From positions 64,001 through 128,000 of the IMG/VR virus record IMGVR_UViG_3300028025_000091: DNA of 64,000 bases; one strand, 5' to 3'. The position numbers were made by a program, and so were the translations under genes. Of this stretch, positions 23,908-55,836 are shown piece by piece; within the stretch, counting starts at the first letter, position 1, and each line of letters opens with the position of its first letter. The notes below the pieces were generated by a model, which was not told the origin of the DNA, searched no databases, and saw nothing but the letters and a program-made list of their open reading frames with translations. This DNA comes from a virus.

Positions 23908-23944
23908 GAAGAAAAATAAGAGTTATATTTAAACAACAAGAACA

Positions 23945-24169
23945 ATGAAAATAAAAATAACAATTAGACAAAGAATAAAGGCATTTTTTATGTTGATAAA
24001 AAGCAAAAGTACTTTAGCGTATGTTATTGATTTAGAAGAACGATGTAAAAAAGCCAATTTTGCACCATTTAGTTTAAGAGTACCGCAAGAAGGTGAATAT
24101 TTTGCTTGGAATGAAGAAACAATACAAAATGCTGAAAATTGGCTCAAAACAAAAATTAAATCAATCTAG
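23945..24169 (+). CDS. Small hypothetical protein
   Basis: ATG supplied by the junction motif; 74 aa. Confidence 0.6.
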   Translation: MKIKITIRQRIKAFFMLIKSKSTLAYVIDLEERCKKANFAPFSLRVPQEGEYFAWNEETIQNAENWLKTKIKSI

Positions 24170-24220
24170 TTTATATAAGGTGAAAAATCCATTAAATAAT
24201 AACTTTAAACAACAAGAACA

Positions 24221-24439
24221 ATGAAACCTTTAAATCAGAATAAGATGGAGAAGCCAAAGCAATTAATTGAAGTAAACTTAGATGAATTAAGAAAGATTTG
24301 CCAAGAGTATGTTGACTTTGTTGATAGTGATGATGAATACTATGAGGACAACAATTATGACCAATACATTTTTGGAAGAGCGATGGTGGCTTTATACGGG
24401 AAAGATGTATTTAATTGGATTAACGAACGTAGAGATTAA
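24221..24439 (+). CDS. Small hypothetical protein (start 24221 or 24245)
   Basis: Acidic ORF starting at the junction-motif ATG; second in-frame ATG at 24245. Confidence 0.6.
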   Translation: MKPLNQNKMEKPKQLIEVNLDELRKICQEYVDFVDSDDEYYEDNNYDQYIFGRAMVALYGKDVFNWINERRD

Positions 24440-24449
24440 ACTTTAAATA

Positions 24450-24836
24450 ATGAAAGTAAGTGAGTTAAGAATTGGAAACTTATTGAGAGATAAAGTAACC
24501 AAAACCGAATTAAGAGTAACCAAATTAACAGAGCAAGATATTGTTACCTATGTTATTGACAGGTCAATGTTTCCCTTACAAGATGGTTGGGGAATTGAAC
24601 CAATCCCACTAACCGAAGAACGGTTGTTAAAGTTTGGGTTTGAAGATGACAGAGATAATCTAATGATACTTAGAAAAGGTGTTTTTGAGTTCTATTTCGA
24701 TAAAGTTGATAAAGATGGTATTAGTCTTTATGAAAAATGGGATGGTAATTTTTTATGTAATGTTGAATATGTTCATGAATTTCAAAACCTACACTTTGCA
24801 TTAACAGGAGAAGAACTTAAACAACAAGAACAATAA
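24450..24836 (+). CDS. Phage hypothetical protein (ELRIGN...PIPLTEE.LLKFGF...VHEFQNL type)
   Basis: Pattern typical of small Bacteroidota-phage proteins; ends in KQQEQ encoded by the junction motif. Confidence 0.7.
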   Translation: MKVSELRIGNLLRDKVTKTELRVTKLTEQDIVTYVIDRSMFPLQDGWGIEPIPLTEERLLKFGFEDDRDNLMILRKGVFEFYFDKVDKDGISLYEKWDGNFLCNVEYVHEFQNLHFALTGEELKQQEQ

Positions 24837-24883
24837 AAACATGACATTTCCAATTGTTGTTAATATGTATAATAAAACAACAT

Positions 24884-25507
24884 ATGGTGATTTATTTAAC
24901 AACTCATGTTATAACTGGAAAAAAATATATTGGAAAGGATGTATCAAATAGTCCTAGTTATTTTGGAAGTGGAGCTGAAATTAAACAGATAATTAAAACA
25001 GAAGGTAAAAGTAATTTAGTTAAAACTATACTTGAACATTGTGATTGTAAAGAAGATTTAGCTAAACGAGAAGAATTTTGGTTGCAAAAGTTTGATGCCG
25101 AAAACAATCCATTGTTTATGAACAGAACAAACAAAGCTTTTGGAAATAGTGGACTTTCGGATGAAACAAAATTAAAGATTAAAATATCTAGTTTAGGTAA
25201 ACCAAAATCTACCGAAGCAAGAAATAATATGAGTAAAGGAAGAACAGGTAAAACTAGAAACCAAACAAAAGTTAGATCAGATAAGGGAAAACCAAGAGGA
25301 ATTAGCCCATGGGTTTCAGAAAGTCTTAAAACTAGAAATAGAGAATCTACCTTCAAACCAGTTATACAATATGATCTAGAAGGTAATATTGTTAGAGAAT
25401 ACAAATCTGCCCAAGAAGCAAAAGATATTACAAATTTAAAAATCCAGAATGCTCTTTTAGGAACTACTAAAACTTCTGGAGGTTATATTTGGAAATACAA
25501 AGAATAA
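24884..25507 (+). mobile_element. Free-standing GIY-YIG homing endonuclease with NUMOD3/NUMOD1-like DNA-binding regions
   Basis: VIY...KKYIGK, YFGSG, E..W; SDETKLKI; KPVIQYDLEGN..REY.SA.EA...TSGGYIWKY; ATATGTATAA motif at 24863. Confidence 0.85.
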
Positions 25508-25517
25508 ATATTATATT
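25489..25517 (+). promoter_or_regulatory. Class I promoter TTGG-N19-TATATT upstream of helicase
   Basis: TTGG at 25489, TATATT at 25512. Confidence 0.6.
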
Positions 25518-25559
25518 TACATTAAATAAAAGTTATTAACAATTTAAAAAATAAAAGTT

Positions 25560-26918
25560 TTGACCTTAGCCAGCATAGACGAATATGGACCATCGTTCCA
25601 GATGAAAGTGATATCTTCTTTACTAACACATAAAGAATTCTTACAAAACATAAACGACGTACTAAGTGATGAATACTTTAGTAATCCGGCTCATAAATGG
25701 ATAATTAACCAAATTATACAATACTACGAAAAGTATCATACAACTATTTCAATGGACATCTTAAAGGTGGAAATGAAGAAATTGGACAATGAAGTACTTA
25801 AAGTATCTGTTAAAGAACAATTACGAGAAGCATATAGAGCTGATATTGAGGATCTAGAATATGTTCAAGGTGAGTTTTCTACATTCTGTAAAAACCAACA
25901 ATTGAAAAAAGCACTATTGAATAGTGTAGATTTATTAAAAGCTGGAGATTATGACTCGATTAAATATATGATTGAATCAGCAATGAAAGCAGGACAAGAT
26001 AAAAACATTGGTCACGAGTATAAAAAAGATACTGAATCACGTTACCGTGAAGATCATAGATCAATTGTACCTACACCATGGGAACCAATTAATGAATTAA
26101 TTCAAGGTGGTTTAGGTAATGGAGATTTAGGATTGATTTTTGGTAATCCTGGAGGAGGTAAGTCATGGACTTTAGTTGCTTTAGGTGGACATGCTGTTAA
26201 AATGGGTTACAATGTTATCCACTATACTTTAGAATTAAGTGAAGCATATACTGGAAGACGATATGACGCTTTCTTTACAGGTACACCTGTAGATCAATTA
26301 GAAAAACATAAAGCAGAGGTAGAAACCCTAACAGCTGATCTGCCAGGAGAATTGATTATTCGCGAATATCCTATGGGAAAAACCACAATCAATACTATAG
26401 AATCGCATATTAAAAAAGTAATTGATTTAGGAATCCAACCAGATCTTATCCTAATAGATTACATTGATCTACTTTCAACAAGAAAAAGAAATGTTGACCG
26501 TAAGGGAGAGATTGATGATATTTATACAAGCACCAAGGGATTAGCTCGCGAATTAAACATACCAATTTGGTCAGTTTCGCAAGTAAATCGCGCAGGAGCC
26601 AAAGATGATATTATTGAAGGCGATAAAGCAGCGGGATCATATGATAAAATGATGATTACCGATTTATCAATGTCGTTGTCAAGAAAGAAAGAAGATAAAG
26701 TTAACGGTACCGGAAGACTTCATATTATGAAAAACAGATATGGTATGGATGGTTTGACATTTCAAGCAGATGTTAACACATCAAATGGTCATATTGCGAT
26801 TGGAGATCATTATGATGAAGAAGCCGATACAGTGACACCAAAAAAACAACAGTCGAATGACTTTGACAATTTAGATATAAAAATGTTAAGTAATAAATTT
26901 TTCGAATTAAACGCATGA
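25560..26918 (+). CDS. Replicative DNA helicase (DnaB/gp41-like)
   Basis: Walker A GNPGGGKS, HYTLELSE, ILIDYIDL, SQVNR, KNRYG. Confidence 0.93.
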   Translation: MTLASIDEYGPSFQMKVISSLLTHKEFLQNINDVLSDEYFSNPAHKWIINQIIQYYEKYHTTISMDILKVEMKKLDNEVLKVSVKEQLREAYRADIEDLEYVQGEFSTFCKNQQLKKALLNSVDLLKAGDYDSIKYMIESAMKAGQDKNIGHEYKKDTESRYREDHRSIVPTPWEPINELIQGGLGNGDLGLIFGNPGGGKSWTLVALGGHAVKMGYNVIHYTLELSEAYTGRRYDAFFTGTPVDQLEKHKAEVETLTADLPGELIIREYPMGKTTINTIESHIKKVIDLGIQPDLILIDYIDLLSTRKRNVDRKGEIDDIYTSTKGLARELNIPIWSVSQVNRAGAKDDIIEGDKAAGSYDKMMITDLSMSLSRKKEDKVNGTGRLHIMKNRYGMDGLTFQADVNTSNGHIAIGDHYDEEADTVTPKKQQSNDFDNLDIKMLSNKFFELNA

Positions 26919-27862
26919 TCACAGAACTAAGACCACATTACAAACCTTTCGAGTACCAAACAGCATTCGAATTTTACAAAGATCAACACCGAGCACACTG
27001 GTTAGCAGATGAAGTTCCATTATCATCAGATTTGAATGACTGGAAACTTAAACTAAGCGAATCAGAAAAAAGCCTAATCGGTAACATCTTGAAATCGTTT
27101 GCTCAAACTGAGACGTATGTCAACGATTATTGGGCTACAAAGGTGGCGGTATGGTTCCCTAAACATGAAATCAAAGCTATGGCGTGTGCATTCGCTGATT
27201 TCGAATCGATACATGCTGAGGCTTATGCTCGTTTAAATGAAGAACTTGGGTTAGATGACTTTGAGGCATTCATGGAAGATGAGGAAGCAAAAGCTAAAAT
27301 TGATCGTCTAGTTGAATTGCCTGGAGATACATTACGTGAGAAAGCACTTTCATTAGCTATATTCTCTGCGTTTACTGAAGGTGTAAATTTATTTTCATCA
27401 TTCGCTATTTTGATGTCTTTTCAATTACGTAACTTGATGAAAGGAACAGGCCAAATTGTAGAATGGAGCGTACGGGATGAATCATTACATTCAAAAGCGG
27501 GATGTTGGTTATTCAGAACAATGATGGAAGAAATGCCTGAATTAAATGATGGAATGGAGTCTCAAATTTATGATGCTTGTGATTTATCAGTTAAATTAGA
27601 ATTTGACTTTATTGACAAAGCATTTGAAATGGGTGAAATTGAAGGTTTAAACATAAACCAATTAAAAAACTTCATCAAGGAACGCGCCAACCAAAAATTA
27701 ATTGAACTAGGTTATAACCCTTTATACAACGATATCGATCCCAATCTTTTAAAATCAATGGAATGGTTCGGACATTTAACAAGTGGTAAAACACACCAAG
27801 ATTTCTTCGCAGGAAGAGTAACAGATTATTCAAAATCAACCGCTGACTGGAGCGATTTATAA
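26915..27862 (+). CDS. nrdB: Ribonucleotide reductase class Ia, beta subunit
   Basis: HWLADEVPLSSD, ESIHAEAY, TEGVNLFSSF, RDESLH, DFFAGRVTDY. Confidence 0.95.
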   Translation: MITELRPHYKPFEYQTAFEFYKDQHRAHWLADEVPLSSDLNDWKLKLSESEKSLIGNILKSFAQTETYVNDYWATKVAVWFPKHEIKAMACAFADFESIHAEAYARLNEELGLDDFEAFMEDEEAKAKIDRLVELPGDTLREKALSLAIFSAFTEGVNLFSSFAILMSFQLRNLMKGTGQIVEWSVRDESLHSKAGCWLFRTMMEEMPELNDGMESQIYDACDLSVKLEFDFIDKAFEMGEIEGLNINQLKNFIKERANQKLIELGYNPLYNDIDPNLLKSMEWFGHLTSGKTHQDFFAGRVTDYSKSTADWSDL

Positions 27863-27871
27863 AAACAACAA

Positions 27872-29599
27872 ATGAGCAAATTAAACGTAGACACAAGTAA
27901 ATGGGTGAAGGGTAAAGATTTCCCTGAATGGATGGATGAGATTGGTACTTCAATCATCTCACAAGGATACTTACTCCCAGAAGAGAATGTATTTAAAGCA
28001 TTCAATCGAGTAAGTAAAGCAGCAGGACGTAGATTAAAACGTAAAGATTTAATTCCGTTTTTTGCTGAAGCGATGGAAAAAAATTGGTTGTGTCTTGCGT
28101 CACCTGTACTTTCAAATTTAGGTACTGAACGTGGTATGCCTATCTCATGTTTTGGGATTGATACAGACGATTCAATTGAAGGGATTGCATTAGCAAATTC
28201 TGAGTTGATGCGTTTGTCATCTCAAGGTGGAGGTGTAGGTATTGGTGTATCTAGAATTAGAGGTAGAGGTAAAGAAATTTCTGGAAACGGTGTTTCTGAA
28301 GGTGTAGTTCCATGGGCTAAAATCTATGATTCAACTATCCTAGCAACAAACCAAGGTTCAGTTAGACGCGGAGCAGCTTCAGTTAACTTACACATCAACC
28401 ACCCAGATATTGAGGAATTCTTAATGATTCGTCGACCAAAAGGAGATGTAAACCGTCAATGTCTTAACTTACACCAGTGTGTAGTGATTGATGATGATTT
28501 TATGAACAAACTAGAGGATAAAGAACCACGCGCTTTAAGATTGTGGGGAGAAATTCTTAAAACACGTTTGGAAACAGGTGAACCTTATATCATGTTTGAA
28601 GACAATGTGAACAACAATAATCCTCAAGCGTATAAAAACAATAATTTGCATGTTTCGATGACAAACATTTGTTCCGAAATTTCACTTTATACAGATCCAT
28701 TACACTCATTTATTTGCTGTTTATCTTCATTGAATTTAGCACGTTGGGAAGAATGGAAAGACTATACATTTGAAAATGGTATGACTTTACCTGAACTATC
28801 ATGTTGGTTCTTAGAAGGAGTATTACAAGAATTTATTGATAGAGCAAAGAATGTTAAATTCATGGAAAACACATACCGCTCAGCACTTAAAGGTAGAGCA
28901 ATTGGTATTGGTGTTTTAGGATGGCATACATTCTTACAAGAAAAAGGTATTCCATTTGCGGGTTTACAAGCAAATTCTTACACTCGAATCATGTCTCAAT
29001 TTATTGAAGAAGGAGCATTAAAAGCATCTCGTGACCAAGCAAAAGAATATGGCGAACCAGAATGGTGTAAAGGAACAGGTTTGAGACATACACACCATTT
29101 AGCAATTGCACCAACAGTATCAAACGCTAACATTTCAGGTGGTGTTTCACCTTCAATTGAACCAATCCCTGCAAATGTATTTAACTTAAAAACAGCTAAA
29201 GGTACATTTATCAAGAAAAACCCAACATTGGAGCGTTTATTAGCTTCAAAAGGATATAACATTGATAGTATTTGGGAACAAATTGCCAAAGATAAAGGTT
29301 CAGTAATGGGGTTACCTGATCATATTTTATCTGATGAAGAAAAAGAGGTATTCTTGACATTCAAAGAAATTAACCCATATGAAATTGTTCGCCAAAATGG
29401 TATTCGTCAAAAATATGTTGATCAAGCTATTTCATTGAATTTGACATTTGATCCATCTGATTCACCTAAATACATTAGTGAGGTACATAAATTAGCTTGG
29501 AAAGAAGGTATCAAAACATTATATTACATGCGCTCAGAAAGTATTTTAAGAGGAGATAATCTTCAACGTACTGCTGATTGTGTTAGCTGCGAAGGGTAG
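27872..29599 (+). CDS. nrdA: Ribonucleotide reductase class Ia, alpha subunit
   Basis: ASPVLSN, PISCF, GGGVG, RRGA, TNICSEI, CCLSSLN, IAPT.S, DQAISLN, KTLYY, C-terminal CVSCEG. Confidence 0.96.
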   Translation: MSKLNVDTSKWVKGKDFPEWMDEIGTSIISQGYLLPEENVFKAFNRVSKAAGRRLKRKDLIPFFAEAMEKNWLCLASPVLSNLGTERGMPISCFGIDTDDSIEGIALANSELMRLSSQGGGVGIGVSRIRGRGKEISGNGVSEGVVPWAKIYDSTILATNQGSVRRGAASVNLHINHPDIEEFLMIRRPKGDVNRQCLNLHQCVVIDDDFMNKLEDKEPRALRLWGEILKTRLETGEPYIMFEDNVNNNNPQAYKNNNLHVSMTNICSEISLYTDPLHSFICCLSSLNLARWEEWKDYTFENGMTLPELSCWFLEGVLQEFIDRAKNVKFMENTYRSALKGRAIGIGVLGWHTFLQEKGIPFAGLQANSYTRIMSQFIEEGALKASRDQAKEYGEPEWCKGTGLRHTHHLAIAPTVSNANISGGVSPSIEPIPANVFNLKTAKGTFIKKNPTLERLLASKGYNIDSIWEQIAKDKGSVMGLPDHILSDEEKEVFLTFKEINPYEIVRQNGIRQKYVDQAISLNLTFDPSDSPKYISEVHKLAWKEGIKTLYYMRSESILRGDNLQRTADCVSCEG

Positions 29600-29666
29600 C
29601 ATACGTATAACAGTAATAGGTTTTTCTTAATTGTTTTTTTTATTTTTAAACAAAACTAAACAAAAA

Positions 29667-31571
29667 ATGAAAAACCTTTTATTGTCCTTGTTACTTTTAA
29701 TAGTAACATTTAATGTATTTTCACAGGCACCGAATGCACCAGGAAATGGTATCTATGCCCTAATCCACCCAACTTATCAAGTTGGTCCTACTGCTACTGG
29801 TTTCACAACAGCTAATGTAACGTTGCAAAATACTACATTAACGAAATTTACAGCAACTCAATTTCGTGTGTTTTACGACAAAATTGCATTTACAAATGCT
29901 ACAGTTGCTTTAATTGGTTCTACAACTAACTTAGATATGCAATATGTAGTTAATGCTGCTAACGGTTACATTACTATTACGCTTGTATACACAGGTGCTT
30001 CTTCAACTTATACTTTAGCTGGTGGAGAAAGATTTGCAATTACATTCACACATGCTGCTCCTGCTGTATTTAACAATTTAGCTTCAATTACCAACTTAAC
30101 TTGGACAGGTGCTGCAACATTTTCACAATATGCTGCTAAACAAAATGGTATTGATACTACTTTGACATTGTACAATTATGGTGGTGTATTTACGTTACCT
30201 ACATTTACATTTGCTGGTACATTTACAAATACAACAGGTACTCCTGCTAAAAACTTACCATTAGCTTTACAAACTCGCCCTGCAGGTGGTTCCACTTGGA
30301 CACAACACTCAGCTTACTCAACTGATTTAACTGGTAACTTTACATTCACCGTTAACTTAGATACAACTTATTGGGATGTACGTTTAGCAATCCAAGGCGA
30401 TACAATGGGTATTGGAAATGCCATTTCAGCAACTGATGCACAATTGATTAATCAGTGGGTATTAGGAAACAGCACAATGTCTGGATTTGATTATTACACA
30501 GCAGATGTGAATGGCTCAAATAACGTAACAATCTCAGATGCTTATGGTGTATTTGCTAAAGTATCAGGTAACTTTACAATGTGGCCAAATAACGTTAAAA
30601 ACGTTAAATTCTTTACAGCAACCGAGTATACTACAATTAATAACTCGTCTACCAACTACACATCAACTATTGCAGGTGTCACCAACTTTACATACGAAAT
30701 CATAGCTGGACAACCTTCAACAGTAACATATTATGTTTGTGTACCGGGTGATGCGAATGGAACAGGATATCATATGGCTCGCCAAACACCAATTGAAATC
30801 TTGATTGATCCAATCCCTGGAATTCAAAATCAAATCTATAACGTAATCGATAACACAGTAGAATATGATTTTCCAACTGCACAAATTGAAGTAAACGTAC
30901 CTTATTTATCTGTACAAGCAGGAAATTTAGTTAACATTCCTGTAAAAGTGTTTACAAATGGGCAAGAATTGAATTCATTGCAATTTGGATTAAAATACGA
31001 TCCAACAGTACTTGAATTTAAAAATGCTTACTCTACTTCAAACGTAATGAAATGGTTAACATATATCAACCTAAATAACGACGAAGTTAAATGGGGTGGA
31101 TATGATGCAACAAATAATTTGAATCCATTACAAGATGGTGATGAAGTAATGACATTGCAATTTTTAGCTAAACAACCACAAAACGAATGGTTAGAAAGTC
31201 CACTTTATACAACTGATAAATTTGCAGGAGCTATCAATTCAAAAGATCTCGAAATTACACCTACAAACGGAATTTTACAAGTACTTAAATCAATCGGAGG
31301 CAAAGTAATTGACCCAAATACAATTGAAATCCAACCAAACCCAGTAACAGAAGATGTTGCAATTACATTCAACGTAACTTCAACTACAGAAGCTCATTTG
31401 GCGATTTATGATTTGCAAGGTAGAAAAATTATTACAATCCTAGACGGACAATTACCAGCAGGACAATTCACATATGTAAAAGATTTAGGTAAATTAGCTC
31501 AAGGAATGTATGTAGTTAATTTATCATTAGATAACGAAAACCCAATAAACACAAAGTTAATTAAACAATAA
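29667..31571 (+). CDS. Secreted cohesin/dockerin scaffold with T9SS type A C-terminal domain
   Basis: Signal peptide; cohesin-like QF...YD segments (TQFRVFYD, LQFGLKYDPTVLEF); dockerin-like ADVNGSNNVTISDA; CTD IQPNPV...IYDLQGR...L..GMY.V...KLIK. Confidence 0.8.
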   Translation: MKNLLLSLLLLIVTFNVFSQAPNAPGNGIYALIHPTYQVGPTATGFTTANVTLQNTTLTKFTATQFRVFYDKIAFTNATVALIGSTTNLDMQYVVNAANGYITITLVYTGASSTYTLAGGERFAITFTHAAPAVFNNLASITNLTWTGAATFSQYAAKQNGIDTTLTLYNYGGVFTLPTFTFAGTFTNTTGTPAKNLPLALQTRPAGGSTWTQHSAYSTDLTGNFTFTVNLDTTYWDVRLAIQGDTMGIGNAISATDAQLINQWVLGNSTMSGFDYYTADVNGSNNVTISDAYGVFAKVSGNFTMWPNNVKNVKFFTATEYTTINNSSTNYTSTIAGVTNFTYEIIAGQPSTVTYYVCVPGDANGTGYHMARQTPIEILIDPIPGIQNQIYNVIDNTVEYDFPTAQIEVNVPYLSVQAGNLVNIPVKVFTNGQELNSLQFGLKYDPTVLEFKNAYSTSNVMKWLTYINLNNDEVKWGGYDATNNLNPLQDGDEVMTLQFLAKQPQNEWLESPLYTTDKFAGAINSKDLEITPTNGILQVLKSIGGKVIDPNTIEIQPNPVTEDVAITFNVTSTTEAHLAIYDLQGRKIITILDGQLPAGQFTYVKDLGKLAQGMYVVNLSLDNENPINTKLIKQ

Positions 31572-31574
31572 GCT

Positions 31575-31898
31575 ATGTCAGAAACAGAAACAAACGACGG
31601 CACTTGGTCAGGCCTTAAAAAAACGATCGTTGGAACATTGTCAACAGTAATCACTGGAGGTGGTGTATGGTTAGGAACAACTCTTTATGGTGGTGGACAT
31701 AATGAAGAGCCTAAAGAAGAAACCAAAACAGAACAACCAGCAGCTGCTCCGGTAATTGTAAACGTTCAACAAAACCAAGAAAACAAACAAAAAGTTGAAA
31801 ATGGTGGGGGAACAATAATCCACGAACGAGTAATTGAAAAACCAGTAGTTACTCAACCAACTACACCAACACCAAAACCTCAAGAGGAATCATGGTAA
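31575..31898 (+). CDS. Small single-TM membrane protein
   Basis: Hydrophobic IVGTLSTVITGGGVWLG followed by a low-complexity tail. Confidence 0.6.
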   Translation: MSETETNDGTWSGLKKTIVGTLSTVITGGGVWLGTTLYGGGHNEEPKEETKTEQPAAAPVIVNVQQNQENKQKVENGGGTIIHERVIEKPVVTQPTTPTPKPQEESW

Positions 31899-35081: not shown

Positions 35082-35082
35082 C

Positions 35083-35959: not shown

Positions 35960-35982
35960 TATTTATAAACAAAAGAACGCTT

Positions 35983-36842: not shown

Positions 36843-36847
36843 GAATT

Positions 36848-43422: not shown

Positions 43423-43431
43423 GAATAAAAC

Positions 43432-43923: not shown

Positions 43924-43926
43924 GTT

Positions 43927-47364: not shown

Positions 47365-47382
47365 ATTTAAAAAATAAAAACT

Positions 47383-47619
47383 ATGACACTTAAAGAATTT
47401 TTACAAGACAAAACATTAACAGCTGTTGAACTAATCGACTATGATTACAACCAAGTTATCAACGTTTATGTTGATGGAGCAGGCTATGGCTTAGCTATAG
47501 ATACATCCAATATCCCTGCCGGAACCCCATTAACATATACTACAGAATTTACATTAGAAGGAGATGTTTTATCTGTAAGTGATTTCTCTATCAATACAAA
47601 TGATATAGATATGCTTTAA
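47383..47619 (+). CDS. Hypothetical acidic protein
   Basis: 78-aa ORF. Confidence 0.55.
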   Translation: MTLKEFLQDKTLTAVELIDYDYNQVINVYVDGAGYGLAIDTSNIPAGTPLTYTTEFTLEGDVLSVSDFSINTNDIDML

Positions 47620-47625
47620 AAAAAT

Positions 47626-47654
47626 TAGGCCCCCCAAAGGGACCTTCGTACATT
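47626..47654 (+). promoter_or_regulatory. Class I promoter TAGG-N19-TACATT
   Basis: Same spacing as the other class I sites; marks the switch from structural to metabolic genes. Confidence 0.5.
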
Positions 47655-47671
47655 TAATGAAAATAAAGGTT

Positions 47672-48256
47672 ATGTACGCATTTATTAAAGAAGGAAGTAT
47701 TCGTCACAGTAGAGAAACGGTTATGGAGCATATCAAAAAACTTCAACCACTCAACTACAACCGATTCATGTGGTGGAGAACACATACTGATAAAGTTACT
47801 CCACTAGGAAAACGTGCTTTACTCAAAGACCGTATCCTAAATGGTGATTTCAATCCATCTTCCTATTTTTGGCAAGCACAATTAGCACTTTATGTTGCTA
47901 AAGACAAACTTGACTTGAGAATCCACGATACTCGTTATCAACTTGATCTTGCTGGTGTTGATTTTATGCGTCACAAAAAATTAATGGAAGACTTTGAGAA
48001 GGAAGAAAAAAACCGTATGTTTGCTTTGTATGAAGCGTTTACTTCCGAATACAACATTACCAAAGAAGAATTAGAGGAGGCATTCCTCAAATCCCATGGC
48101 ACCATTTTAGATTTCTATTACTATGCCGAGGAATTTTTGTACAAAACACCATCTTCCAACCGTAAAGACATGCGTGGACGACCTAAAAAAGTAAGAACTG
48201 AATCCGTACCTAGAGTTTTACAAAAAAAACGAGGTAGACCAAAAAAGAATAAATGA
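47672..48256 (+). CDS. Hypothetical protein with two C-terminal AT-hook-like motifs
   Basis: MRGRPKK and KRGRPKK; start at ATG 47672 (AAGGTTATG). Confidence 0.65.
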   Translation: MYAFIKEGSIRHSRETVMEHIKKLQPLNYNRFMWWRTHTDKVTPLGKRALLKDRILNGDFNPSSYFWQAQLALYVAKDKLDLRIHDTRYQLDLAGVDFMRHKKLMEDFEKEEKNRMFALYEAFTSEYNITKEELEEAFLKSHGTILDFYYYAEEFLYKTPSSNRKDMRGRPKKVRTESVPRVLQKKRGRPKKNK

Positions 48257-48657
48257 AAACAGGAGTTATAGCAGGAAATTTTGACGTAATCCATCCAGGA
48301 TACATTTATATGTTTGATGAATGTAAACAAAATTGTGATCACCTTGTAGTATACCTACATAAAGATCCATCAATTGAACGTCCCGAAAAACTAAAACCGA
48401 TTTTATCGGTTGAGGAACGTCGTAAAATTCTATTTGCTTTAGATATCCCTACAGTTATAGCTTACGATACTGAAAAGGAGTTGTATTGGATGCTTCATGA
48501 TGGGAATTTTGATGTTCGATTTTTAGGAGATGATTACATTGGAAAACCATTCACGGGTGATGATTTAGATATACCCATCCATTATCTTAGTAGAGATCAT
48601 GGTTGGTCAACAACAAAATATAAACAATTAATAGCAAATAGTTTAAATGAAAAATAA
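48253..48657 (+). CDS. Cytidylyltransferase (TagD-like)
   Basis: GNFDVIHPGY, KPILS..ER, GDDY, RDHGWSTT. Confidence 0.85.
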   Translation: MKTGVIAGNFDVIHPGYIYMFDECKQNCDHLVVYLHKDPSIERPEKLKPILSVEERRKILFALDIPTVIAYDTEKELYWMLHDGNFDVRFLGDDYIGKPFTGDDLDIPIHYLSRDHGWSTTKYKQLIANSLNEK

Positions 48658-48874
48658 CCAATACCCACAACCAAATGAGATTTGGCAACACTACAAAGGT
48701 GGAAAATACCAAATTGTAGCAATGTGTAATCACACAAATACAGATGAAGTACTTGTAATATATAAATCAATGTCATTTGGAGGTTTCCATGCTCGTCCGT
48801 ATAGTGAATGGCATGAACAAGTTGGAGAAACAGGAGCCGCAGGATATCCAATTTATCGTTTTGAAAAATTATGA
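48647..48874 (+). CDS. DUF1653-like protein
   Basis: WQHYKGG.Y, H..T.E.LVIY, ARP, RFE. Confidence 0.8.
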   Translation: MKNNQYPQPNEIWQHYKGGKYQIVAMCNHTNTDEVLVIYKSMSFGGFHARPYSEWHEQVGETGAAGYPIYRFEKL

Positions 48875-49971
48875 ATATAGAACATGATTACCTTAGACTC
48901 CTAAAGGATATCCTAGACAATGGAGTACAAAAACAAGATAGAACTGGAACAGGTACTATCTCAGTATTTGGAAGACAGATTAGACATAAGATGTCTGAGG
49001 GATTTCCTTTGATTACAACTAAGAAAATGCCATTTCGTCTTATAGCAACTGAATTGTTATGGTTCTTACGTGGTGATTCTGATATTAGATTTTTATGGGA
49101 AAATAATTGTACAATCTGGGATGGTGATTGGTATAAGAAGTATAAAACTACTTGTTCTGAACCATACACATTAGAAGAGGTTAAACAGAAAGTAAAAGAT
49201 GGTAACCATTCTTTTCACGATTCAATGTTTGATATGGGTCCTGTTTATGGTAGACAATGGAGAAGTTGGAGACGATATAGAAAATTACCAAAAGATGATT
49301 ACACTACAGATTACAGAGAAAATGAACCAATAGATCAAATCCAAAATCTAATCAATGACCTTAAAACAAACCCAGATTCTAGACGATTGATGGTTAATGC
49401 TTGGAATGTAGGTGAATTAGACCAAATGGTTCTTCCACCTTGTCATTATGGATTTCAAGTTTATACAAGAGAGTTGAGTTTCGCGGAGAGAGTTGTTTGG
49501 ATAAAAAATAATTCATCAACCCAACAAATAACTCTACCACAATATATAGATGATAAATTTTCTTTGGATGAATTTTTTAAACCATATGGAGTTCCAACCA
49601 GAGCAATCTCCCTAATGTGGAATCAAAGATCAGTAGATACATTCTTAGGTTTACCATTCAACATTGCTTCATATGGTTTGTTATTAGAAATTATTGCTAG
49701 AGAAGTCAATATGGTACCTGATGAATTGATTGGGAATTTAGGTGATGTACATTTATATTCAAATCATTTAAATCAAGCAAAAGAACAAATTACGAGAGAG
49801 CCATTTAAATTACCTGAACTTCAGTGTTTAGATGAATATCATTACTTAATGGATGAAGAATTGGTTGATCCAATTCCACTCGATAAGAAAATACAACAAT
49901 TTAGACCCGACTTTTTTATAATGAACAATTACGAATCCCACCCACATATTAAAGCACCTTTATCAAATTAA
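48871..49971 (+). CDS. thyA: Thymidylate synthase
   Basis: DRTGTGT, ELLWFL.G, GPVYG.QWR, PDSRR, LPPCH, QRSVD.FLGLPFN, GDVHLY.NH. Confidence 0.97.
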   Translation: MNIEHDYLRLLKDILDNGVQKQDRTGTGTISVFGRQIRHKMSEGFPLITTKKMPFRLIATELLWFLRGDSDIRFLWENNCTIWDGDWYKKYKTTCSEPYTLEEVKQKVKDGNHSFHDSMFDMGPVYGRQWRSWRRYRKLPKDDYTTDYRENEPIDQIQNLINDLKTNPDSRRLMVNAWNVGELDQMVLPPCHYGFQVYTRELSFAERVVWIKNNSSTQQITLPQYIDDKFSLDEFFKPYGVPTRAISLMWNQRSVDTFLGLPFNIASYGLLLEIIAREVNMVPDELIGNLGDVHLYSNHLNQAKEQITREPFKLPELQCLDEYHYLMDEELVDPIPLDKKIQQFRPDFFIMNNYESHPHIKAPLSN

Positions 49972-49975
49972 AATT

Positions 49976-50215
49976 ATGAAAAAATTAGTATTAATATTAG
50001 CAGTATTAGGATTAACAAGTTGTGTTAATCAAATGGACCGTCTAAAAGACGCTCAAAAAAAGTATCCAAAATGTATTGTACAACCAACAACAAGTTTACT
50101 AGCCAGAGATGGATATGAAATTATGGTAGAAGATACCATCACTAATCAAATTTATGTATTGAGTTACTACTCATTTAGTACAACAAAAATTTCAAGTATC
50201 CGAAACATCAAGTAA
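49976..50215 (+). CDS. Small lipoprotein
   Basis: MKKLVLILAVLGLTSC lipobox. Confidence 0.7.
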   Translation: MKKLVLILAVLGLTSCVNQMDRLKDAQKKYPKCIVQPTTSLLARDGYEIMVEDTITNQIYVLSYYSFSTTKISSIRNIK

Positions 50216-50631
50216 TGGAACTACTAAACACACACCCAATTAAAAAATCCGATTTAGGTTTCCATGGAAATCTATTTGGTGGCAAATTACTATCATGGAT
50301 AGATGCTTCAGCTGCAGGTTATGCAATGCAACTTTGTGATACCCCGAGAATGGTAACAGTATCGATTGATCAATGCAACTTTGAGAAACCAGCCAAGGAA
50401 TCCCAACTATTAAAAATTTATGGATATCCAAAACGTGTAGGAAACAGCTCAATGACTCTTTATATGGAAGCAAGAGCCCATAATGTTTATACAGGCAAAC
50501 AGGATATTGTATTGAAAACAAACACTACATTTGTTCAGATTGATGAAGGTGGAAATTCAATCCCACTTGGTGAAAAAGCTAAAAAGAGAATTAATGGGAT
50601 GCTTGGAGAAAACTTGGTTTTTGAAAAATAA
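50215..50631 (+). CDS. Acyl-CoA thioesterase (hotdog fold, YciA-like)
   Basis: DL..HGNLFGGKLLSWID, VT.SID...F.KP, VG.SS, TFVQIDE.G. Confidence 0.88.
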   Translation: MELLNTHPIKKSDLGFHGNLFGGKLLSWIDASAAGYAMQLCDTPRMVTVSIDQCNFEKPAKESQLLKIYGYPKRVGNSSMTLYMEARAHNVYTGKQDIVLKTNTTFVQIDEGGNSIPLGEKAKKRINGMLGENLVFEK

Positions 50632-50642
50632 TTTTGTATATT
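50614..50642 (+). promoter_or_regulatory. Class I promoter TTGG-N19-TATATT
   Basis: TTGG at 50614, TATATT at 50637. Confidence 0.6.
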
Positions 50643-50663
50643 CCGGGTATAAAAATAAGAGTT

Positions 50664-50900
50664 ATGATATTTAGAAAAAAAACAAAAGCCAAATTTAAAT
50701 TATTCCTACGAAATTTAGGAATGCTTTGTAAAGGACCAACTGGATCCTCAAAACGAATTAGAATCTCCAAAACAGTTTACCCAGACAATACAGTTGTTGA
50801 ACATGGTTATATTACAGAAGTACCTCAAAACAAAGATTCATTTGCTTCCGAGTTGCATGTTTACAATGAAATTAAAAAATCCGTAAAGAAAAATAAATAA
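50664..50900 (+). CDS. Small basic hypothetical protein
   Basis: ATG in AAGAGTTATG context. Confidence 0.5.
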   Translation: MIFRKKTKAKFKLFLRNLGMLCKGPTGSSKRIRISKTVYPDNTVVEHGYITEVPQNKDSFASELHVYNEIKKSVKKNK

Positions 50901-50920
50901 ATCCCCTAAAAATAAAAGTT

Positions 50921-51244
50921 ATGAAAATCGAGAGAGAAAAAGTTATGAATTTGTTAAAGCCGGCTATGAACCTTATTATTGTAGCAGCTGTTGGAACAGC
51001 TATGTTCCGTTTAGGAATTGCTTATCAATCACATGAAAGCAAAGAAAATATCAAAGTAGATAACCCATATGCACACGCATTTTCCCCTGAGGAAATTTCA
51101 ATCGCAGTTAACGAATCAAACGAGTTGATCATGATTGAACGTTCAACTGGAAAATACATTGTATATTCAGATCAAATTGGCCAAACCATCTTTGGAATGT
51201 ATGCCAATCGTATTCACCAAGAGGTAACTAATGTTAGTAAATAG
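50921..51244 (+). CDS. Membrane-anchored hypothetical protein
   Basis: One N-terminal TM segment; overlaps the SLT gene. Confidence 0.6.
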   Translation: MKIEREKVMNLLKPAMNLIIVAAVGTAMFRLGIAYQSHESKENIKVDNPYAHAFSPEEISIAVNESNELIMIERSTGKYIVYSDQIGQTIFGMYANRIHQEVTNVSK

Positions 51245-51752
51245 TATCAAAATCGGTATTGTAGCGGGGGCAGTTATTGCCACCGCTCTTACTGTTACTG
51301 AACCGGAAGTTCAAGCAACTCAAGACGTGCGCATTCCGGACAGTATCGATCAAAGTTCACCCCCATGTCTGCAGATGTATGAGTACATTAAAGCATACGC
51401 TGATACGTTTGATATTCCATTAAATTATGCATTTGGAATAGCATATTGTGAAACAAGATATGAAGGTCCATTTCAGTGGAAATATAACCCTGCCCAAACC
51501 TCCCCTACAGGTGCTGAAGGACCAATGCAAATTTTGCTTTCAACAGCACGTTACTTAAACAAAGATAAAGTTTCACGTGAACGTTTACGTACTGACATTG
51601 GGTATAACGTGAAAACTTCAATGGGTTATTTAAGACGTTTATACAATCGTTACAAAAGTTGGCCAATTGTGTTTGGATACTACAATACAGGTTACCCTAG
51701 AGTAAATGATTATGCAAGAAAAGTTGTAAATTTTAAAATGAATTGGATATGA
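51231..51752 (+). CDS. Lytic transglycosylase (SLT) with N-terminal anchor
   Basis: IAYCET, SPTGA.GPMQI...TA, YL..L, YYNTG. Confidence 0.85.
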   Translation: MLVNSIKIGIVAGAVIATALTVTEPEVQATQDVRIPDSIDQSSPPCLQMYEYIKAYADTFDIPLNYAFGIAYCETRYEGPFQWKYNPAQTSPTGAEGPMQILLSTARYLNKDKVSRERLRTDIGYNVKTSMGYLRRLYNRYKSWPIVFGYYNTGYPRVNDYARKVVNFKMNWI

Positions 51753-51997
51753 AAGAAGTAGTTTGTATAAACGATAAAAACCTACCTGAAGGTGCAGCAG
51801 TAGTAAAGGGTAGAGAATATAATGTAGTAGAAGAATTTATAAACAACTATGACCAGCGAGTTTATATCATTGAAGGTATTGTAAATGAAGGTACTACTAA
51901 AATGGGATTACGTTGGGTTGGATATGATGCATCTCGATTTGCAATCCCCGAAACATTAATGGAAGAAACTTACGAACACGCATACGCAGAAGCTTAA
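51749..51997 (+). CDS. Hypothetical protein
   Basis: VVCINDK...G..Y.V small beta-rich ORF. Confidence 0.6.
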   Translation: MKEVVCINDKNLPEGAAVVKGREYNVVEEFINNYDQRVYIIEGIVNEGTTKMGLRWVGYDASRFAIPETLMEETYEHAYAEA

Positions 51998-51998
51998 T

Positions 51999-52796
51999 AT
52001 GAAAAAAGTAAAAATTAGTCACGAGGTACCATTTTGCCTCTTAGAACAAAGTAGAAAATTTAACGACTACGATTATTGTTTACCCCACTTGATGGACGAA
52101 AATGAAGAATATCGCAACTTCTTCTACGAATCAAAGAAAATGGGTCGATATATTGTAATGGACAATTCACTCCATGAACTAGGTGAAGCATACAATACAG
52201 AACGTTTAATGCACTGGATTGGAGAAATCAAACCAAATGAATTCATAGTTCCAGATGTATGGGAGAACTATGCTGAGTCAGTTAGAAATGCAAAACAATG
52301 GGCTCAAGTAGAATTACCAGACGGAGTAACTAAAGTAGCAGTAGTACAAGCAAAATCAATGTATGAAGCAGGATTATGTGTTCAAGCATATCGTGATTTT
52401 GGATACAAGAAAATTGCATTTTCATATGGTGCAGAATACTACCACAGTGAAATGTGTCCACATCCAAACAAAGATTTAGGTAAAGCAATTGGTCGTTACA
52501 TGGTTTTATCAACTTTCCAAAACAATAAAACACTTTTGCCAAACGATAGAGTACATTTGCTTGGAACCGCATCCCCAATTGAATTTGGAATGTATAAAAA
52601 TATGCCATTTATTGAATCAATTGATACTTCAAATCCAATTATGGCAGCAATTGGTGAAATGCCTTATACAAAAATGGGGTTATATCAAAAACCACTTGCA
52701 AACATGAACAAATACCAAGATATAAGCATTGATTTTGTAAACGAAGATCTTATAGAATACAATGTTGAAATGTTTCGTACAATAAATGGACTCTAA
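51999..52796 (+). CDS. tRNA-guanine transglycosylase-like TIM-barrel protein (candidate DpdA)
   Basis: IVMDNS, IVPDV, AVVQ, VHLLG, SIDTS motifs of the TGT fold; near queC/D/E. Confidence 0.65.
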   Translation: MKKVKISHEVPFCLLEQSRKFNDYDYCLPHLMDENEEYRNFFYESKKMGRYIVMDNSLHELGEAYNTERLMHWIGEIKPNEFIVPDVWENYAESVRNAKQWAQVELPDGVTKVAVVQAKSMYEAGLCVQAYRDFGYKKIAFSYGAEYYHSEMCPHPNKDLGKAIGRYMVLSTFQNNKTLLPNDRVHLLGTASPIEFGMYKNMPFIESIDTSNPIMAAIGEMPYTKMGLYQKPLANMNKYQDISIDFVNEDLIEYNVEMFRTINGL

Positions 52797-52815
52797 TTTG
52801 GAGTCCATATTTTAT
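52786..52815 (+). terminator. Hairpin / terminator overlapping a class I promoter (TTGG 52798, TATATT 52821)
   Basis: atggactct...ggagtccat followed by an A/T tract. Confidence 0.55.
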
Positions 52816-52843
52816 TTTAGTATATTTATACAAACAATAAGTT

Positions 52844-53101
52844 ATGGAATATTTAAGTTTATATGATTACCTAAAAAGACCCGCAGGTGGTGAATTAGGT
52901 AGAGAAGTAGCACAAGCAGCTAGTAAAGCAGGTGTTAAATTAGAAACTCGAGAGGTTTCAACCCCAAATTATACAGGAATAGTATATTTGTATCCTAATG
53001 ATTTCTTAGATTTTTATTTTAGAGAACCTGATTCAAATCTAATGGATGAATTACCTGGAGAATTAAATTATAATATTGGAGACGACGATTTACCATTTTA
53101 A
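52844..53101 (+). CDS. Small protein with SSB-like acidic tail
   Basis: Ends GDDDLPF. Confidence 0.65.
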   Translation: MEYLSLYDYLKRPAGGELGREVAQAASKAGVKLETREVSTPNYTGIVYLYPNDFLDFYFREPDSNLMDELPGELNYNIGDDDLPF

Positions 53102-53110
53102 TAAAAAAAT

Positions 53111-53959
53111 ATGAAACACGTAGTAGTATCCTTATCTGGAGGGATGGATTCCTCCACATTGTTACTTCGTTGCTTGAAAGAGTACGATACCGTAACAGCA
53201 ATTTCATTTGACTATGGTCAAAAACATCGAGTTGAGCTTGAACGTGCTCAATCGTTGGTAGATTATATTAATCATATTAATTCTGCCTATTCATCAATTC
53301 GTTATCGTCAAATCCAATTAAATGGATTAGTTGATCTTTTAGATTCAGCTCTGGTAACAGGTGGAGATGATGTACCTGAAGGACATTATGCTGAAGAAAA
53401 CATGAAAGCAACAGTTGTTCCAAATAGAAACAAAATATTTGCTTCAATCGTACAAGCAGTTGCACTTTCAGTAGCAAATAAAACAGGAGAAAATTGTGAT
53501 ATTGCAATGGGAATCCATGCAGGTGATCATGCAATTTACCCTGATTGCCGACAAGAATTTAGAGATGCAGACGACCATGCTTTTAGAATGGGGAATTGGG
53601 ATGCAGAGCGAGTAGGTTACTTTACACCATACCTTGAAGGTGATAAATTTACCATCTTACAAGATGGAGAAGTATTATGTGGTGAATTAGGTTTAGACTT
53701 TAATGAAGTATATAAACGTACAAACACTTCATACAAACCAATTTTCCTTAATTTAGCATTTGTAAATAATGAAGATGAAATAGTTGATTGTTCAGATTGG
53801 TTCTCTGATTATAAATCAGCAAGTTCCGTGGAGCGAGTAGAGGCCTTTATTAAATTAGGAAGACCTGATCCCGCAGGATATGCAGATGAAGAAGGTCCTG
53901 TAAGTTGGGAACATGTAGTAACAGAAGTAACAAAAGTACTAGAAAACCATGAAGGATAG
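53111..53959 (+). CDS. queC: 7-cyano-7-deazaguanine synthase
   Basis: SLSGGMDS, FDYGQKH..E, TVVPNRN, GIHAGDHAIYPDCR.EF. Confidence 0.95.
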   Translation: MKHVVVSLSGGMDSSTLLLRCLKEYDTVTAISFDYGQKHRVELERAQSLVDYINHINSAYSSIRYRQIQLNGLVDLLDSALVTGGDDVPEGHYAEENMKATVVPNRNKIFASIVQAVALSVANKTGENCDIAMGIHAGDHAIYPDCRQEFRDADDHAFRMGNWDAERVGYFTPYLEGDKFTILQDGEVLCGELGLDFNEVYKRTNTSYKPIFLNLAFVNNEDEIVDCSDWFSDYKSASSVERVEAFIKLGRPDPAGYADEEGPVSWEHVVTEVTKVLENHEG

Positions 53960-54128
53960 TTGTATTATAGACTGGGAATTATACCAAAAAGTTATGGCAA
54001 AGAAAAGAACAATTAAAGTATGTACCGGGATTGGATTGAATATGTTTTTTCCCGAATACATTACTATCGAATTAACCGATATAGATACAGAAATTAAAAC
54101 ACCTAAAAAAACAAAGAAAAATGGGTAG
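53949..54128 (+). CDS. Small hypothetical protein (59 aa, not in ORF track)
   Basis: Translated by hand: MKDSCIIDWELYQKVMAKKRTIKVCTGIGLNMFFPEYITIEL...; overlaps the queC stop and queD start. Confidence 0.45.
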   Translation: MKDSCIIDWELYQKVMAKKRTIKVCTGIGLNMFFPEYITIELTDIDTEIKTPKKTKKNG

Positions 54129-54606
54129 ATATATTAGCACAAAATTATTTGAAAATTATTCCGTTGCACTTAGACAATGGAGAGCATCTCACTCACATTG
54201 TGAATTGTTACATGGTTATGCTTTGAAATTCAAAGTATGGTTTGCTTCAAACGAACCGCTAGAGGAAAACCAATTAGATGACATGAACTGGATCGTTGAT
54301 TACGGTGGGTTCAAAGATGCACCTAAAGGTAATGGTTTGAAATCTTGGATGAATTATATGTGGGATCACACATTGTTGATCGAGAAGGACGATCCATACT
54401 TAGACTTTTTCGAATCGGCAGCAATGGAAGGTTTATGCGCACTTCGAGTAATGGACAAAATGGGCGCAGAATCATGTGCTAAATTAGTGTTTGATCATTT
54501 TAACGACGTTTTAGCCAAAACAGACGCCGGAAGATGCAAAGTAATTAAAGTAGAATGTTTCGAAAACGACAATAACTCTAGTATTTATGAAGAAACGGAA
54601 GCCTAA
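54121..54606 (+). CDS. queD: 6-carboxy-5,6,7,8-tetrahydropterin synthase
   Basis: HC..LHGY, W.VDYG, WDH, AE, E...NS. Confidence 0.9.
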   Translation: MGRYISTKLFENYSVALRQWRASHSHCELLHGYALKFKVWFASNEPLEENQLDDMNWIVDYGGFKDAPKGNGLKSWMNYMWDHTLLIEKDDPYLDFFESAAMEGLCALRVMDKMGAESCAKLVFDHFNDVLAKTDAGRCKVIKVECFENDNNSSIYEETEA

Positions 54607-54718
54607 ACAACTTAAACCTGTTCCTCCAATTACAATAGGACCATTTAGTCCTAGAGTAGCAAAAATTCTTACAGATGCTGATAAAGAATATCAAAAAAAT
54701 AGAAAAGATGAACAATAG
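54587..54718 (+). CDS. Small basic hypothetical protein (43 aa, not in ORF track)
   Basis: MKKRKPKQLKPVPPITIGPFSPRVAKILTDADKEYQKNRKDEQ; overlaps the queD end. Confidence 0.35.
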   Translation: MKKRKPKQLKPVPPITIGPFSPRVAKILTDADKEYQKNRKDEQ

Positions 54719-54814
54719 CTATTACACAACAACCACCACTTTTGGTGACATTAAATTCACTTATATATTTTAACAAAATAGCGACTTTGGTGCGTTTTTA
54801 CCATATGTATAATC

Positions 54815-55396
54815 ATGGAACGCACCAAAATTTACTATCTACATTACGGAAATAATGTACCAATTTATGTAGGAAAATCTAATAGAATCCAAGGTAGAAT
54901 ATCTAATCATAGAAAAAATTTCGGAAAAGATATTATAGCTGAAGTGTTAGATGATGTACCTTTACATGAATGGAAGTTTTGGGAGTGTTTTTGGATAGAA
55001 CAATTTAAACAATGGGGGTATGTTCTTTCAAACAAAAACAATGGTGGTGGAGGAGCTACTAAACAAAATTTTTCCCCTATTAGAAGTCAAAAAATAAGTA
55101 AAGCTAGACTAGGTAAACCTATGCCCCATAAAGGAAAAAAATTCACAGAAGAGCATAAAGAGAAAATTAAATCTACTCGAGGTTTTCTCCAATCCCGCCC
55201 AAATACTTGGACAAATCAACCAGTTCTTCAATATAATTTAGATGGAACTTTTATAAGGGAATTTGGTTCCCAATTAGAAGCTTCGTATTTTTTACAGGTA
55301 AAAGGAGATGGAGTTGGAGCCTGTTGTAGAGGTAAACAAAAATCTGCTTATGGTTACATATGGAAATTTAAAAATATAAAACAACAAGAACAATGA
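54815..55396 (+). mobile_element. Free-standing GIY-YIG-type homing endonuclease with NUMOD3/NUMOD1-like regions
   Basis: KIY...IYVGKS..R..H, E.FWI, N.N.GG; HKGKKFTEEHKEKI; PVLQYNLDG.FI.EF...GYIWKF; ATATGTATAA motif at 54803. Confidence 0.8.
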
Positions 55397-55596
55397 AGAC
55401 AAAATTTTTACAAAGTGTAGAGAGATACACAAACACGAAAGGAAAAACAGGTTACAAAGCTATTTATAGCAATGGAATTGATTTTCAAACATTATTCTTC
55501 CCAATTAGAAATGGAGTAGATGTTATTAATATTCCTTCAATTATTAACTCAGTTCAAACAATAGATGATTTAGAAGCTATTGGAGCAGAACTTTAA
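55393..55596 (+). CDS. Small hypothetical protein
   Basis: 67 aa, flanked by junction motifs. Confidence 0.6.
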   Translation: MKTKFLQSVERYTNTKGKTGYKAIYSNGIDFQTLFFPIRNGVDVINIPSIINSVQTIDDLEAIGAEL

Positions 55597-55608
55597 AAAA
55601 CAAGAACA

Positions 55609-55836
55609 ATGAAAGAGAAACAATTAACAGCAGTAGAACAAGCAGCAGTTGCTTTAAGATTATGGTCAAATGCTTGGAGGGAATTTGATAAGACAGGTAA
55701 AAATAAACCTGAATCATTTGAAAAAGTAATTGAACCGTTTATTAAAATGGAGAAGGAGTCACTCCAGGAATCCTATGTTAATGGATATGCAAAAACCAAA
55801 AAGATGCTTATACAATTTAAACAACAAGAACAATGA
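55609..55836 (+). CDS. Small hypothetical protein
   Basis: 75 aa; QLTAVE start; ends FKQQEQ. Confidence 0.6.
   Translation: MKEKQLTAVEQAAVALRLWSNAWREFDKTGKNKPESFEKVIEPFIKMEKESLQESYVNGYAKTKKMLIQFKQQEQ

Follow-up and report, generated by a model that had tools for sequence, protein, structure and literature searches.

The question raised by the present locus is why one short sequence should stand, nearly letter by letter the same, between small genes that have no relationship to each other. The window, i.e., the whole stretch of 64,000 nucleotides that was analyzed, comprises bases 64001-128000 of the 173,789-bp IMG/VR record IMGVR_UViG_3300028025_000091, which represents a large uncultured phage. 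It contains the sequence AAACAACAAGAACAAT(G/A)A, in the following called the motif, six times. An inspection of the letters without database searches (the sequence-only reading) had proposed that the motif is a portable junction between gene cassettes, which unites a stop codon, a start codon and a crossover site. The observation behind this proposal was confirmed to be real, and its interpretation was supported and withstood both refuting conditions that the sequence-only reading had named: with moderate confidence, the motif is regarded as a linker at which translation stops and restarts and which doubles as a short patch of homology for crossovers.

Five of the six copies are exact and one has a single mismatch, and all are on the + strand (Table 1). 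Only 0.09 copies were expected by chance, and none of 100 shuffled sequences reached six. The number of copies and their location at gene junctions had been described correctly, while two details had been left unstated, namely that copy 5 deviates (AAAAAAC) and that copy 4 lacks the TTT prefix. It was verified that the motif forms the C-terminus KQQEQ* of three unrelated proteins and that in five copies its ATG opens the next gene; copy 3 reads ATAA and provides a stop without a start codon. Copies 1 and 2 are non-coding on their upstream side, yet their sequence is identical. The genes that meet at the junctions encode two GIY-YIG endonucleases, a thioredoxin, a member of phrog_10066 and ORFans, and are unrelated. 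The KQQEQ tail is foreign to the phrog_10066 family: the homolog from Cellulophaga phage phi19:3 can be aligned up to the motif and then has a different end. In line with the earlier view that selection acts on DNA or RNA and not on protein, the tail derives from the junction and not from the protein families.

An alignment of 221 copies yielded the junction consensus (T/C)T-AAACAACAAGAACA-ATG-A-AA, which has a length of about 19-23 nt and outside of which the flanks are not conserved. Apart from a single G and a single T, the motif is composed of A and C; it is not self-complementary, and neither an inverted repeat nor a foldable hairpin was found in the junction. The base preceding the motif is a T in 208 of the 221 copies, which places a TAA in frame with the following ATG.

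The genome has a G+C content of 33%, carries essentially all genes on one strand, and was estimated to be 100% complete. With up to two mismatches, it contains 23 copies of the motif in six clusters; every one of them is on the + strand, and the reverse strand has none. The motif ATG starts 20 of the 252 called genes, which encode proteins of 57-129 aa, and it starts none of the core genes, so that the absence from core genes that had been noted for the window holds for the whole genome. In array 1 the gene order is UvsX-like, FEN, array, homing-endonuclease gene (HEG), DnaB, and in array 2 it is QueD, HEG, array, thioredoxin, QueE. Another array, with six motif copies at genome positions 140835-144619 (L154), splits the gene for the large subunit of the clamp loader from that for the small subunit; in T4 the two genes are adjacent.

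The search of viral genomes for the 18-mer, which the sequence-only reading had proposed, revealed that the motif is widespread. The exact 18-mer was found in at least 118 IMG/VR viral contigs, often two to five times per contig and with a median spacing of 218 nt. In 1.19 Mb of carrier loci, the gene strand contained 220 exact 19-mers as well as 68, 22, and 22 copies with one, two, and three mismatches, respectively; on the reverse strand no copy with up to three mismatches was present. At 238 of 315 copies the motif starts a called gene, and the encoded proteins fall into 104 families with a median size of 68 aa; a tandem duplication of one gene family was ruled out, because the cassette proteins are unrelated. 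The upstream gene ends at KQQEQ*, i.e., with read-through to the ATGA, in 130 of the 315 cases, and at a TAA 12 nt before the ATG in 52. The carriers represent at least three phage backbones without common core genes, namely the kin of the present phage (5 loci), a smaller type with primase/helicase, NinG, Erf, exonuclease, array, SSB, and terminase (78 loci), and a ParB/helicase type plus others (35 loci). Cassettes aside, no protein family common to all carriers was found. The look-alikes of the commonest cassette family (fam0) are hypothetical and virus-only. No record of the INPHARED phage collection had the motif, and the only match to a cultured relative was phi19:3, with its tail-less homolog of one cassette protein. 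A literature search retrieved neither the exact word nor anything specific on boundary sequences.

In 596 Gb of bacterial genomes the 19-mer occurred 25 times, each time as a single copy. Fourteen of these matches were in Bacteroidota, and about 11 of the 14 were at the starts of signal-peptide genes, once per genome, in Prevotella, Arenibacter, Kordia, and Chitinophagales (L134, L137, L141, L143, L149, and others). The sequence is therefore able to serve as a host-type start region. A host-wide start consensus was ruled out, because the word is almost absent from bacterial genomes. A 1.2-kb contig that had been binned as Flavobacteriia (L142) turned out to be a fragment of a phage array.

The features of the motif as a start region were compared with those of other genes. 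An SD-like (Shine-Dalgarno-like) 4-mer was found for only 17 of the 252 genes of the phage, and the leaders are A-rich, which is the Bacteroidota pattern. The motif has A at positions -3, -6, -12, and -13 relative to the ATG, where A proved to be a positive determinant in measurements on Flavobacterium johnsoniae (Baez et al., 2019, PMC6847099); it has no SD sequence, and no extra AUG is nearby. The predicted unpaired probability was 0.77 for motif start regions versus 0.57 for other genes (p = 2e-8). With its A positions, the lack of an SD sequence and its open predicted structure, the motif resembles the Kozak-like starts of Bacteroidia; it differs from them in that the host regions show a loose preference, whereas the motif is a fixed 19-mer hardly used by hosts. 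An upstream stop codon that overlaps the next start codon is characteristic of the 130 ATGA copies mentioned above. On the mRNA, the element would end the upstream gene in two of the three frames, either at the TAA at -15, which is in frame with the next ATG, or at the TGA of the ATGA, which would yield the KQQEQ* tail. The next ATG would then be offered in an unpaired, A-rich, SD-free context, as Bacteroidota ribosomes prefer it, and translation may restart there. With such a stop/restart junction, small genes without promoters of their own could be lined up in polycistronic arrays and would nevertheless be translated. Tethering via the 16S rRNA, similar to the calicivirus TURBS, was rejected; the longest complement in two Bacteroidota 16S rRNAs was 7-9 nt, within the range of shuffled motifs.

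Strict and strand-specific conservation from about -15 to +6 around the ATG is also typical of the recognition sites of proteins and polymerases, and the genes headed by the motif are all small accessory genes. The word could be an operator for a factor acting in trans, for instance a RegA-like translational repressor or an endoribonuclease of the RegB type, or the promoter of leaderless transcripts, and it would then mark a co-regulated gene class, with recombination as a by-product. This explanation was judged to be improbable. A search of the genome for a RegA homolog (PF01818) gave no match even at E <= 1, and a single-subunit (T7-type) RNA polymerase was not found in a search of the genome that had no positive control. 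At least three unrelated backbones without shared core genes carry the motif, which makes it improbable that one factor encoded by the phages is common to all of them, except if that factor itself belongs to the cassettes. The stops in two frames and the ATGA overlaps point to translation. A scan for the sigma-70-type promoter consensus, which does not cover Bacteroidota promoters, revealed no excess and no site at the copies, and with just 14 conserved bases before the ATG there is no room for a promoter plus leader. No terminator-like site was detected at any motif copy, and there was no excess of such sites. One small protein (phrog_11184, fam2) was considered as a motif-binding factor; it had no Pfam or PDB match, and the position of its gene reflects backbone synteny. 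The protein has about 85 aa (L154:4616-4879) and 59 distinct homologs, with invariant K-Y, W, E, D, and L-Y; its gene is usually at the 5' edge of the array in Erf-type phages, and follows the gene for the small subunit of the clamp loader in the present genome.

Differences in gene content among relatives had been predicted to have their breakpoints at the motif, and this was what the comparisons revealed at both window sites and in further contig pairs. In the relative L012 (about 82% nt identity), the match to the window extended to position 55403, 7 nt beyond copy 4, and began again at 55818, 1 nt ahead of copy 6; the two cassettes between these copies were swapped for two unrelated ones. 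In L040 (88-93% identity) the match extended to 23951, 3 nt beyond copy 1, and began again at 24817, 2 nt ahead of copy 3. The three cassettes of L040 are unlike those of the window, and two of them resemble cassettes in other arrays of the present genome. In five contig pairs one member has one or two cassettes more than the other, and where these are missing, the alignments of the two flanks overlap by precisely one intact motif. Over all loci, nucleotide homology that existed on one side was not continued across 96% of the motif junctions, compared with 64-67% of other tight small-gene junctions (p = 4e-26). The fam0 genes have 50 different upstream neighbors, in contrast to the Erf gene, which is followed by the exonuclease gene in 59 of 62 cases. 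In 28 contigs the interval from the exonuclease gene to the SSB gene comprises 1-10 genes in many combinations, and the number of cassettes at one site, behind a single promoter-like box, is 0 in one relative, 1 in another, and at least 12 in a third. The cassette at 55393-55596 and its counterpart in an Erf-type contig of an unrelated backbone (94% nt identity) are bounded by the motif, and the paralogous cassettes at 55609-55836 and at 173095-173298 of the genome are identical over the 77 nt that lead up to the motif, past which the DNA is unrelated.

A simpler explanation would be that the motif is a translation signal only, i.e., a good stop/restart region for Bacteroidota that travels with its genes; swaps would arise anywhere by illegitimate or site-specific microhomology recombination, and selection would keep those at gene borders. 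Several results weigh against a crossover at the motif and agree with this explanation. Ordinary mosaicism plus selection would equally yield homology that ends at gene boundaries, and the motif fits the A-rich, unstructured start context of the hosts. Many whole-gene indels in the same contigs are at other, non-motif junctions, which have site-specific sequences of their own with overlaps of 13-35 nt. At motif junctions with homology on both flanks, the identity jumps were not larger than elsewhere; the difference was not significant (Mann-Whitney), and this test was therefore not used as support. Furthermore, the patch of perfect identity between two random copies has a median length of 21 nt and reaches at least 23 nt in just 29% of the cases, while minimal efficient pairing segments of 23-27 bp for Redbeta and 31-34 bp for RecA have been published (De Paepe et al., 2014, PMC3945230). 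As the patch is at or below these minima, a crossover at the motif would be rare. On the other side, 19 fixed bases are not needed for a start signal, and C at -2, -8, and -11 as well as G at -5 are nearly invariant in the motif and rare in the other start regions of the phage. The hosts almost never use the word, homology breaks far more often at motif junctions than at comparable ones, and exactly one intact copy is kept at empty sites. A role in translation alone was thus regarded as rather unlikely.

A further point against the crossover reading is that the arrays at the two window sites occur only alongside an HEG and could be passengers of that element. This association had not been noted by the sequence-only reading. 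The two sites were compared in 150 relatives. Between FEN and DnaB, HEG1 was present in three of 77 relatives, all of which had a motif array, and none of the 74 relatives without HEG1 had one. Between QueD and QueE, HEG2 was present in four of 75 relatives; arrays were found in two of these four, in addition to the window, and in none of the 71 without HEG2. Both genes have the GIY-YIG domain, an intergenic place between conserved genes and a presence/absence polymorphism, as is typical of homing-endonuclease genes, and their products are predicted endonucleases. The ancestral state of the second site is QueD-Trx-QueE, with a motif-free thioredoxin start, or QueD-QueE. The arrays at the window sites are therefore recent and infrequent insertions that go together with homing-endonuclease genes. 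On the nucleotide level, HEG2 and its counterpart in L012 have an identity of 97.7%, compared with 80-84% for the flanks, which suggests that it homed recently, and a third array, in L128, likewise abuts a GIY-YIG gene.

It was therefore considered whether the arrays are carried along by co-conversion when an adjacent GIY-YIG gene homes, with no part in recombination for the motif itself. This is distinctly improbable. Three different array contents (window included) were found beside HEG1 genes of 98.5-100% identity, and another three beside HEG2 genes of 99-100% identity, so that the cassettes turn over independently of the endonuclease. The array content at the window sites turns over faster than the flanks diverge. 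The arrays of most carriers, the Erf-type contigs, have no adjacent endonuclease, and the same is true of the 141.9-kb array and of those at the genome ends. In addition, the link between array and HEG at each site may go back to a single ancestral insertion.

Which enzymes might act at the motif was approached via the gene content. In two backbones the arrays have genes for a recombinase and an exonuclease as neighbors, and an Erf/exonuclease pair is directly upstream of the arrays in 62-64 of the 118 carrier loci. In the whole genome no tyrosine or serine recombinase (PF00589, PF00239) was matched, while both controls were, in agreement with the earlier remark that no integrase is visible. 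A true integron-like system, in which an unrecognized site-specific recombinase cuts and joins at the motif, would explain the uniform one-directional arrays and the clean single-copy empty sites. It is exceedingly improbable, as the genome without such a recombinase is estimated to be complete, the motif is unpaired and has no inverted repeat or hairpin, and the carriers have no protein family in common apart from cassettes. The preferred reading, a stop/restart linker that doubles as a crossover patch, makes use of general recombination. On the DNA, the same short sequence recurs at every array junction; a genome can have several such arrays, and unrelated phages that share hosts have them as well, which makes the element a ready patch of identity. 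Phage recombination may cross over at this patch, with UvsX and FEN in the present phage and with Erf and exonuclease in most other carriers; breaks made by the neighboring GIY-YIG endonucleases would possibly start the crossover. In this way complete genes, ready for expression, would be lost, gained or exchanged. The catalysis by UvsX and the translational coupling that had been proposed by the sequence-only reading would fit into this scheme.

The closest described system is the PeSL (promoter-early stem-loop) of T4-type phages, which has the same role and is a different element. PeSLs have a length of about 100 bp and consist of a sigma-70 promoter and a terminator hairpin (Arbiol et al., 2010, PMC2839356; Comeau et al., 2014, PMC4122927). 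In both cases short regulatory elements are repeated beside small ORFan genes, in hyperplastic islands that are framed by core genes, the breakpoints of insertions, deletions and replacements among relatives fall into the element, and recombination between copies has been proposed to shuffle ready-to-express genes. The present element is five times shorter (19-23 nt), has no hairpin and no recognizable promoter, and in place of a terminator stem-loop it has the more unpaired region described above. It overlaps stop and start codons and would act on translation, in a host group without SD recognition, and it is unchanged across unrelated phage backbones. PeSL mini-circles have been shown by experiment (PMC2839356; PMC4122927).

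With integrons (IntI, attI/attC, Pc) the arrays share one-directional, apparently promoter-less single-gene cassettes, a repeated junction, and variable number and content at a fixed site. They are apparently read from an upstream promoter, and the terminal array follows a TTTCGTATATT promoter-like box. Neither an IntI-type integrase nor a folded attC-type site was found, the junction is the translation start itself, and exchange would occur by general homologous or short-homology recombination. The resemblance is one of layout only. A third comparison is the linker or boundary model of lambdoid phages, in which short conserved sequences at gene borders have been proposed as crossover points. 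Erf/exonuclease pairs efficiently recombine short and diverged homologies by relaxed, Rad52-like recombination (De Paepe et al., 2014, PMC3945230). The phages studied here differ in that they use one invariant word at hundreds of junctions and across backbones, and in that this word does not exceed the measured minimal pairing segments in length.

It is tempting to speculate, though this must be regarded as tentative, that the motif is a standard connector among unrelated phages of the same Bacteroidota hosts and thus a currency of gene exchange. Any small gene carrying the motif could then be plugged into the array of any carrier and be translated at once. The invariance of the 19 bases would be kept by selection for mobility and by homogenizing recombination, and not by translation alone, breaks by homing endonucleases would seed new arrays, and the system would be an integrase-free viral counterpart of the integron.

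Whether phage mosaicism results from recombination at conserved linkers or from random recombination followed by selection of viable products is an old open question. In the present case a single invariant linker occupies hundreds of junctions in three backbones, the empty sites are clean, and the arrays change more quickly than the DNA around them. This opens the linker model to a direct test, which would take place in a host group whose ribosomes ignore SD sequences. Through the arrays, a large reservoir of small and mobile genes known only from viruses also becomes recognizable, with 104 families in the present data. Genes of this small mobile kind often serve host takeover or anti-defense, and the 19-mer is a simple key to search for them in metagenomes.

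Table 1. Motif copies, cassette genes, endonuclease genes and anchoring genes in the window (positions refer to the window).
Feature	Position	Strand	Remark
Motif copy 1, exact	23931..23948	+	Intergenic after FEN gene; ATG of open reading frame (ORF) 23945-24169
Motif copy 2, exact	24207..24224	+	ATG of ORF 24221-24439
Motif copy 3, terminal ATAA form	24819..24836	+	KQQEQ* of ORF 24450-24836; no start codon
Motif copy 4, exact	55379..55396	+	KQQEQ* of GIY-YIG gene (ORF 54815-55396); ATG of ORF 55393-55596
Motif copy 5, one mismatch	55595..55612	+	Upstream gene ends at in-frame TAA just before; ATG of ORF 55609-55836
Motif copy 6, exact	55819..55836	+	KQQEQ* of ORF 55609-55836; ATG of thioredoxin gene (55833)
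Cassette gene, 74 aa, ORFan	23945..24169	+	Singleton family
Cassette gene, 72 aa, ORFan	24221..24439	+	
Cassette gene, 128 aa, phrog_10066	24450..24836	+	Homolog in Cellulophaga phage phi19:3 (gp061) without KQQEQ tail
HEG1, free-standing GIY-YIG/NUMOD homing-endonuclease gene	24884..25507	+	Directly after array 1; phrog_314 7.5e-27
HEG2, free-standing GIY-YIG homing-endonuclease gene	54815..55396	+	Heads array 2; last codons are the motif; PF01541 25.9 bits, above cut-off
Cassette gene, 67 aa	55393..55596	+	94% nt identity to cassette of unrelated Erf-type contig L079
Cassette gene, 75 aa	55609..55836	+	Paralog at genome 173095-173298
Thioredoxin gene	55833..56081	+	Starts at motif here; start region motif-free in relatives without array
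UvsX/RecA-like recombinase	21775-22863	+	Left anchor of array 1 together with FEN
5'-3' exonuclease/FEN	22865-23896	+	Left anchor of array 1 together with UvsX
DnaB-like helicase	25560..26918	+	Right anchor of array 1; abuts FEN in 67/77 relatives
QueD-like gene	54121..54606	+	Left anchor of site 2
QueE radical-SAM gene	56066..56848	+	Right anchor of site 2

Some further observations were made at the array sites. At the FEN-DnaB site the ancestral intergenic sequence (GTTATTATATTTAAATAAAAGTTAT...) flanks the insertion of array plus HEG on both sides, at window positions 23897-23930 and 25508-25560, and in L040 the array starts precisely where the start codon of DnaB would be. Just 5' of array 1, at 23875-23894, the FEN gene shares its end with a terminator-like hairpin (ATTGTTGG-AAAA-CCAACAAT), to which a T-rich tail is attached.

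The last 498 nt of the contig are an exact repeat of genome positions 172641-173138, and the contig end falls inside a cassette gene (L155); the assembly probably represents the array across the genome ends incompletely. A promoter-like box (AGGAATAG...TTTCGTATATT) is present on both sides of this terminal array, at genome positions 172196-172257 and 764-821 (L155, L156). The same box was compared in L128:11620-11990 and L069:4800-4900, and it is single in an array-less relative. The duplicated promoter-like region may itself be a recombination patch, which would be nearer to a true PeSL.

In the whole genome, two upstream words recur, namely ATATTTATAATAAA before many structural genes, which is probably a late promoter, and AAATAAAAGTTATG before many core genes. 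Downstream of array 2, a region of about 9.5 kb from window position 56833 to 64000 and onward to genome position 130387 is exchanged for about 0.7 kb in L012, with breakpoints that are not at the motif. It includes ORFs of 323, 1378, 520, and 822 aa, which are probably tail-fibre-like.

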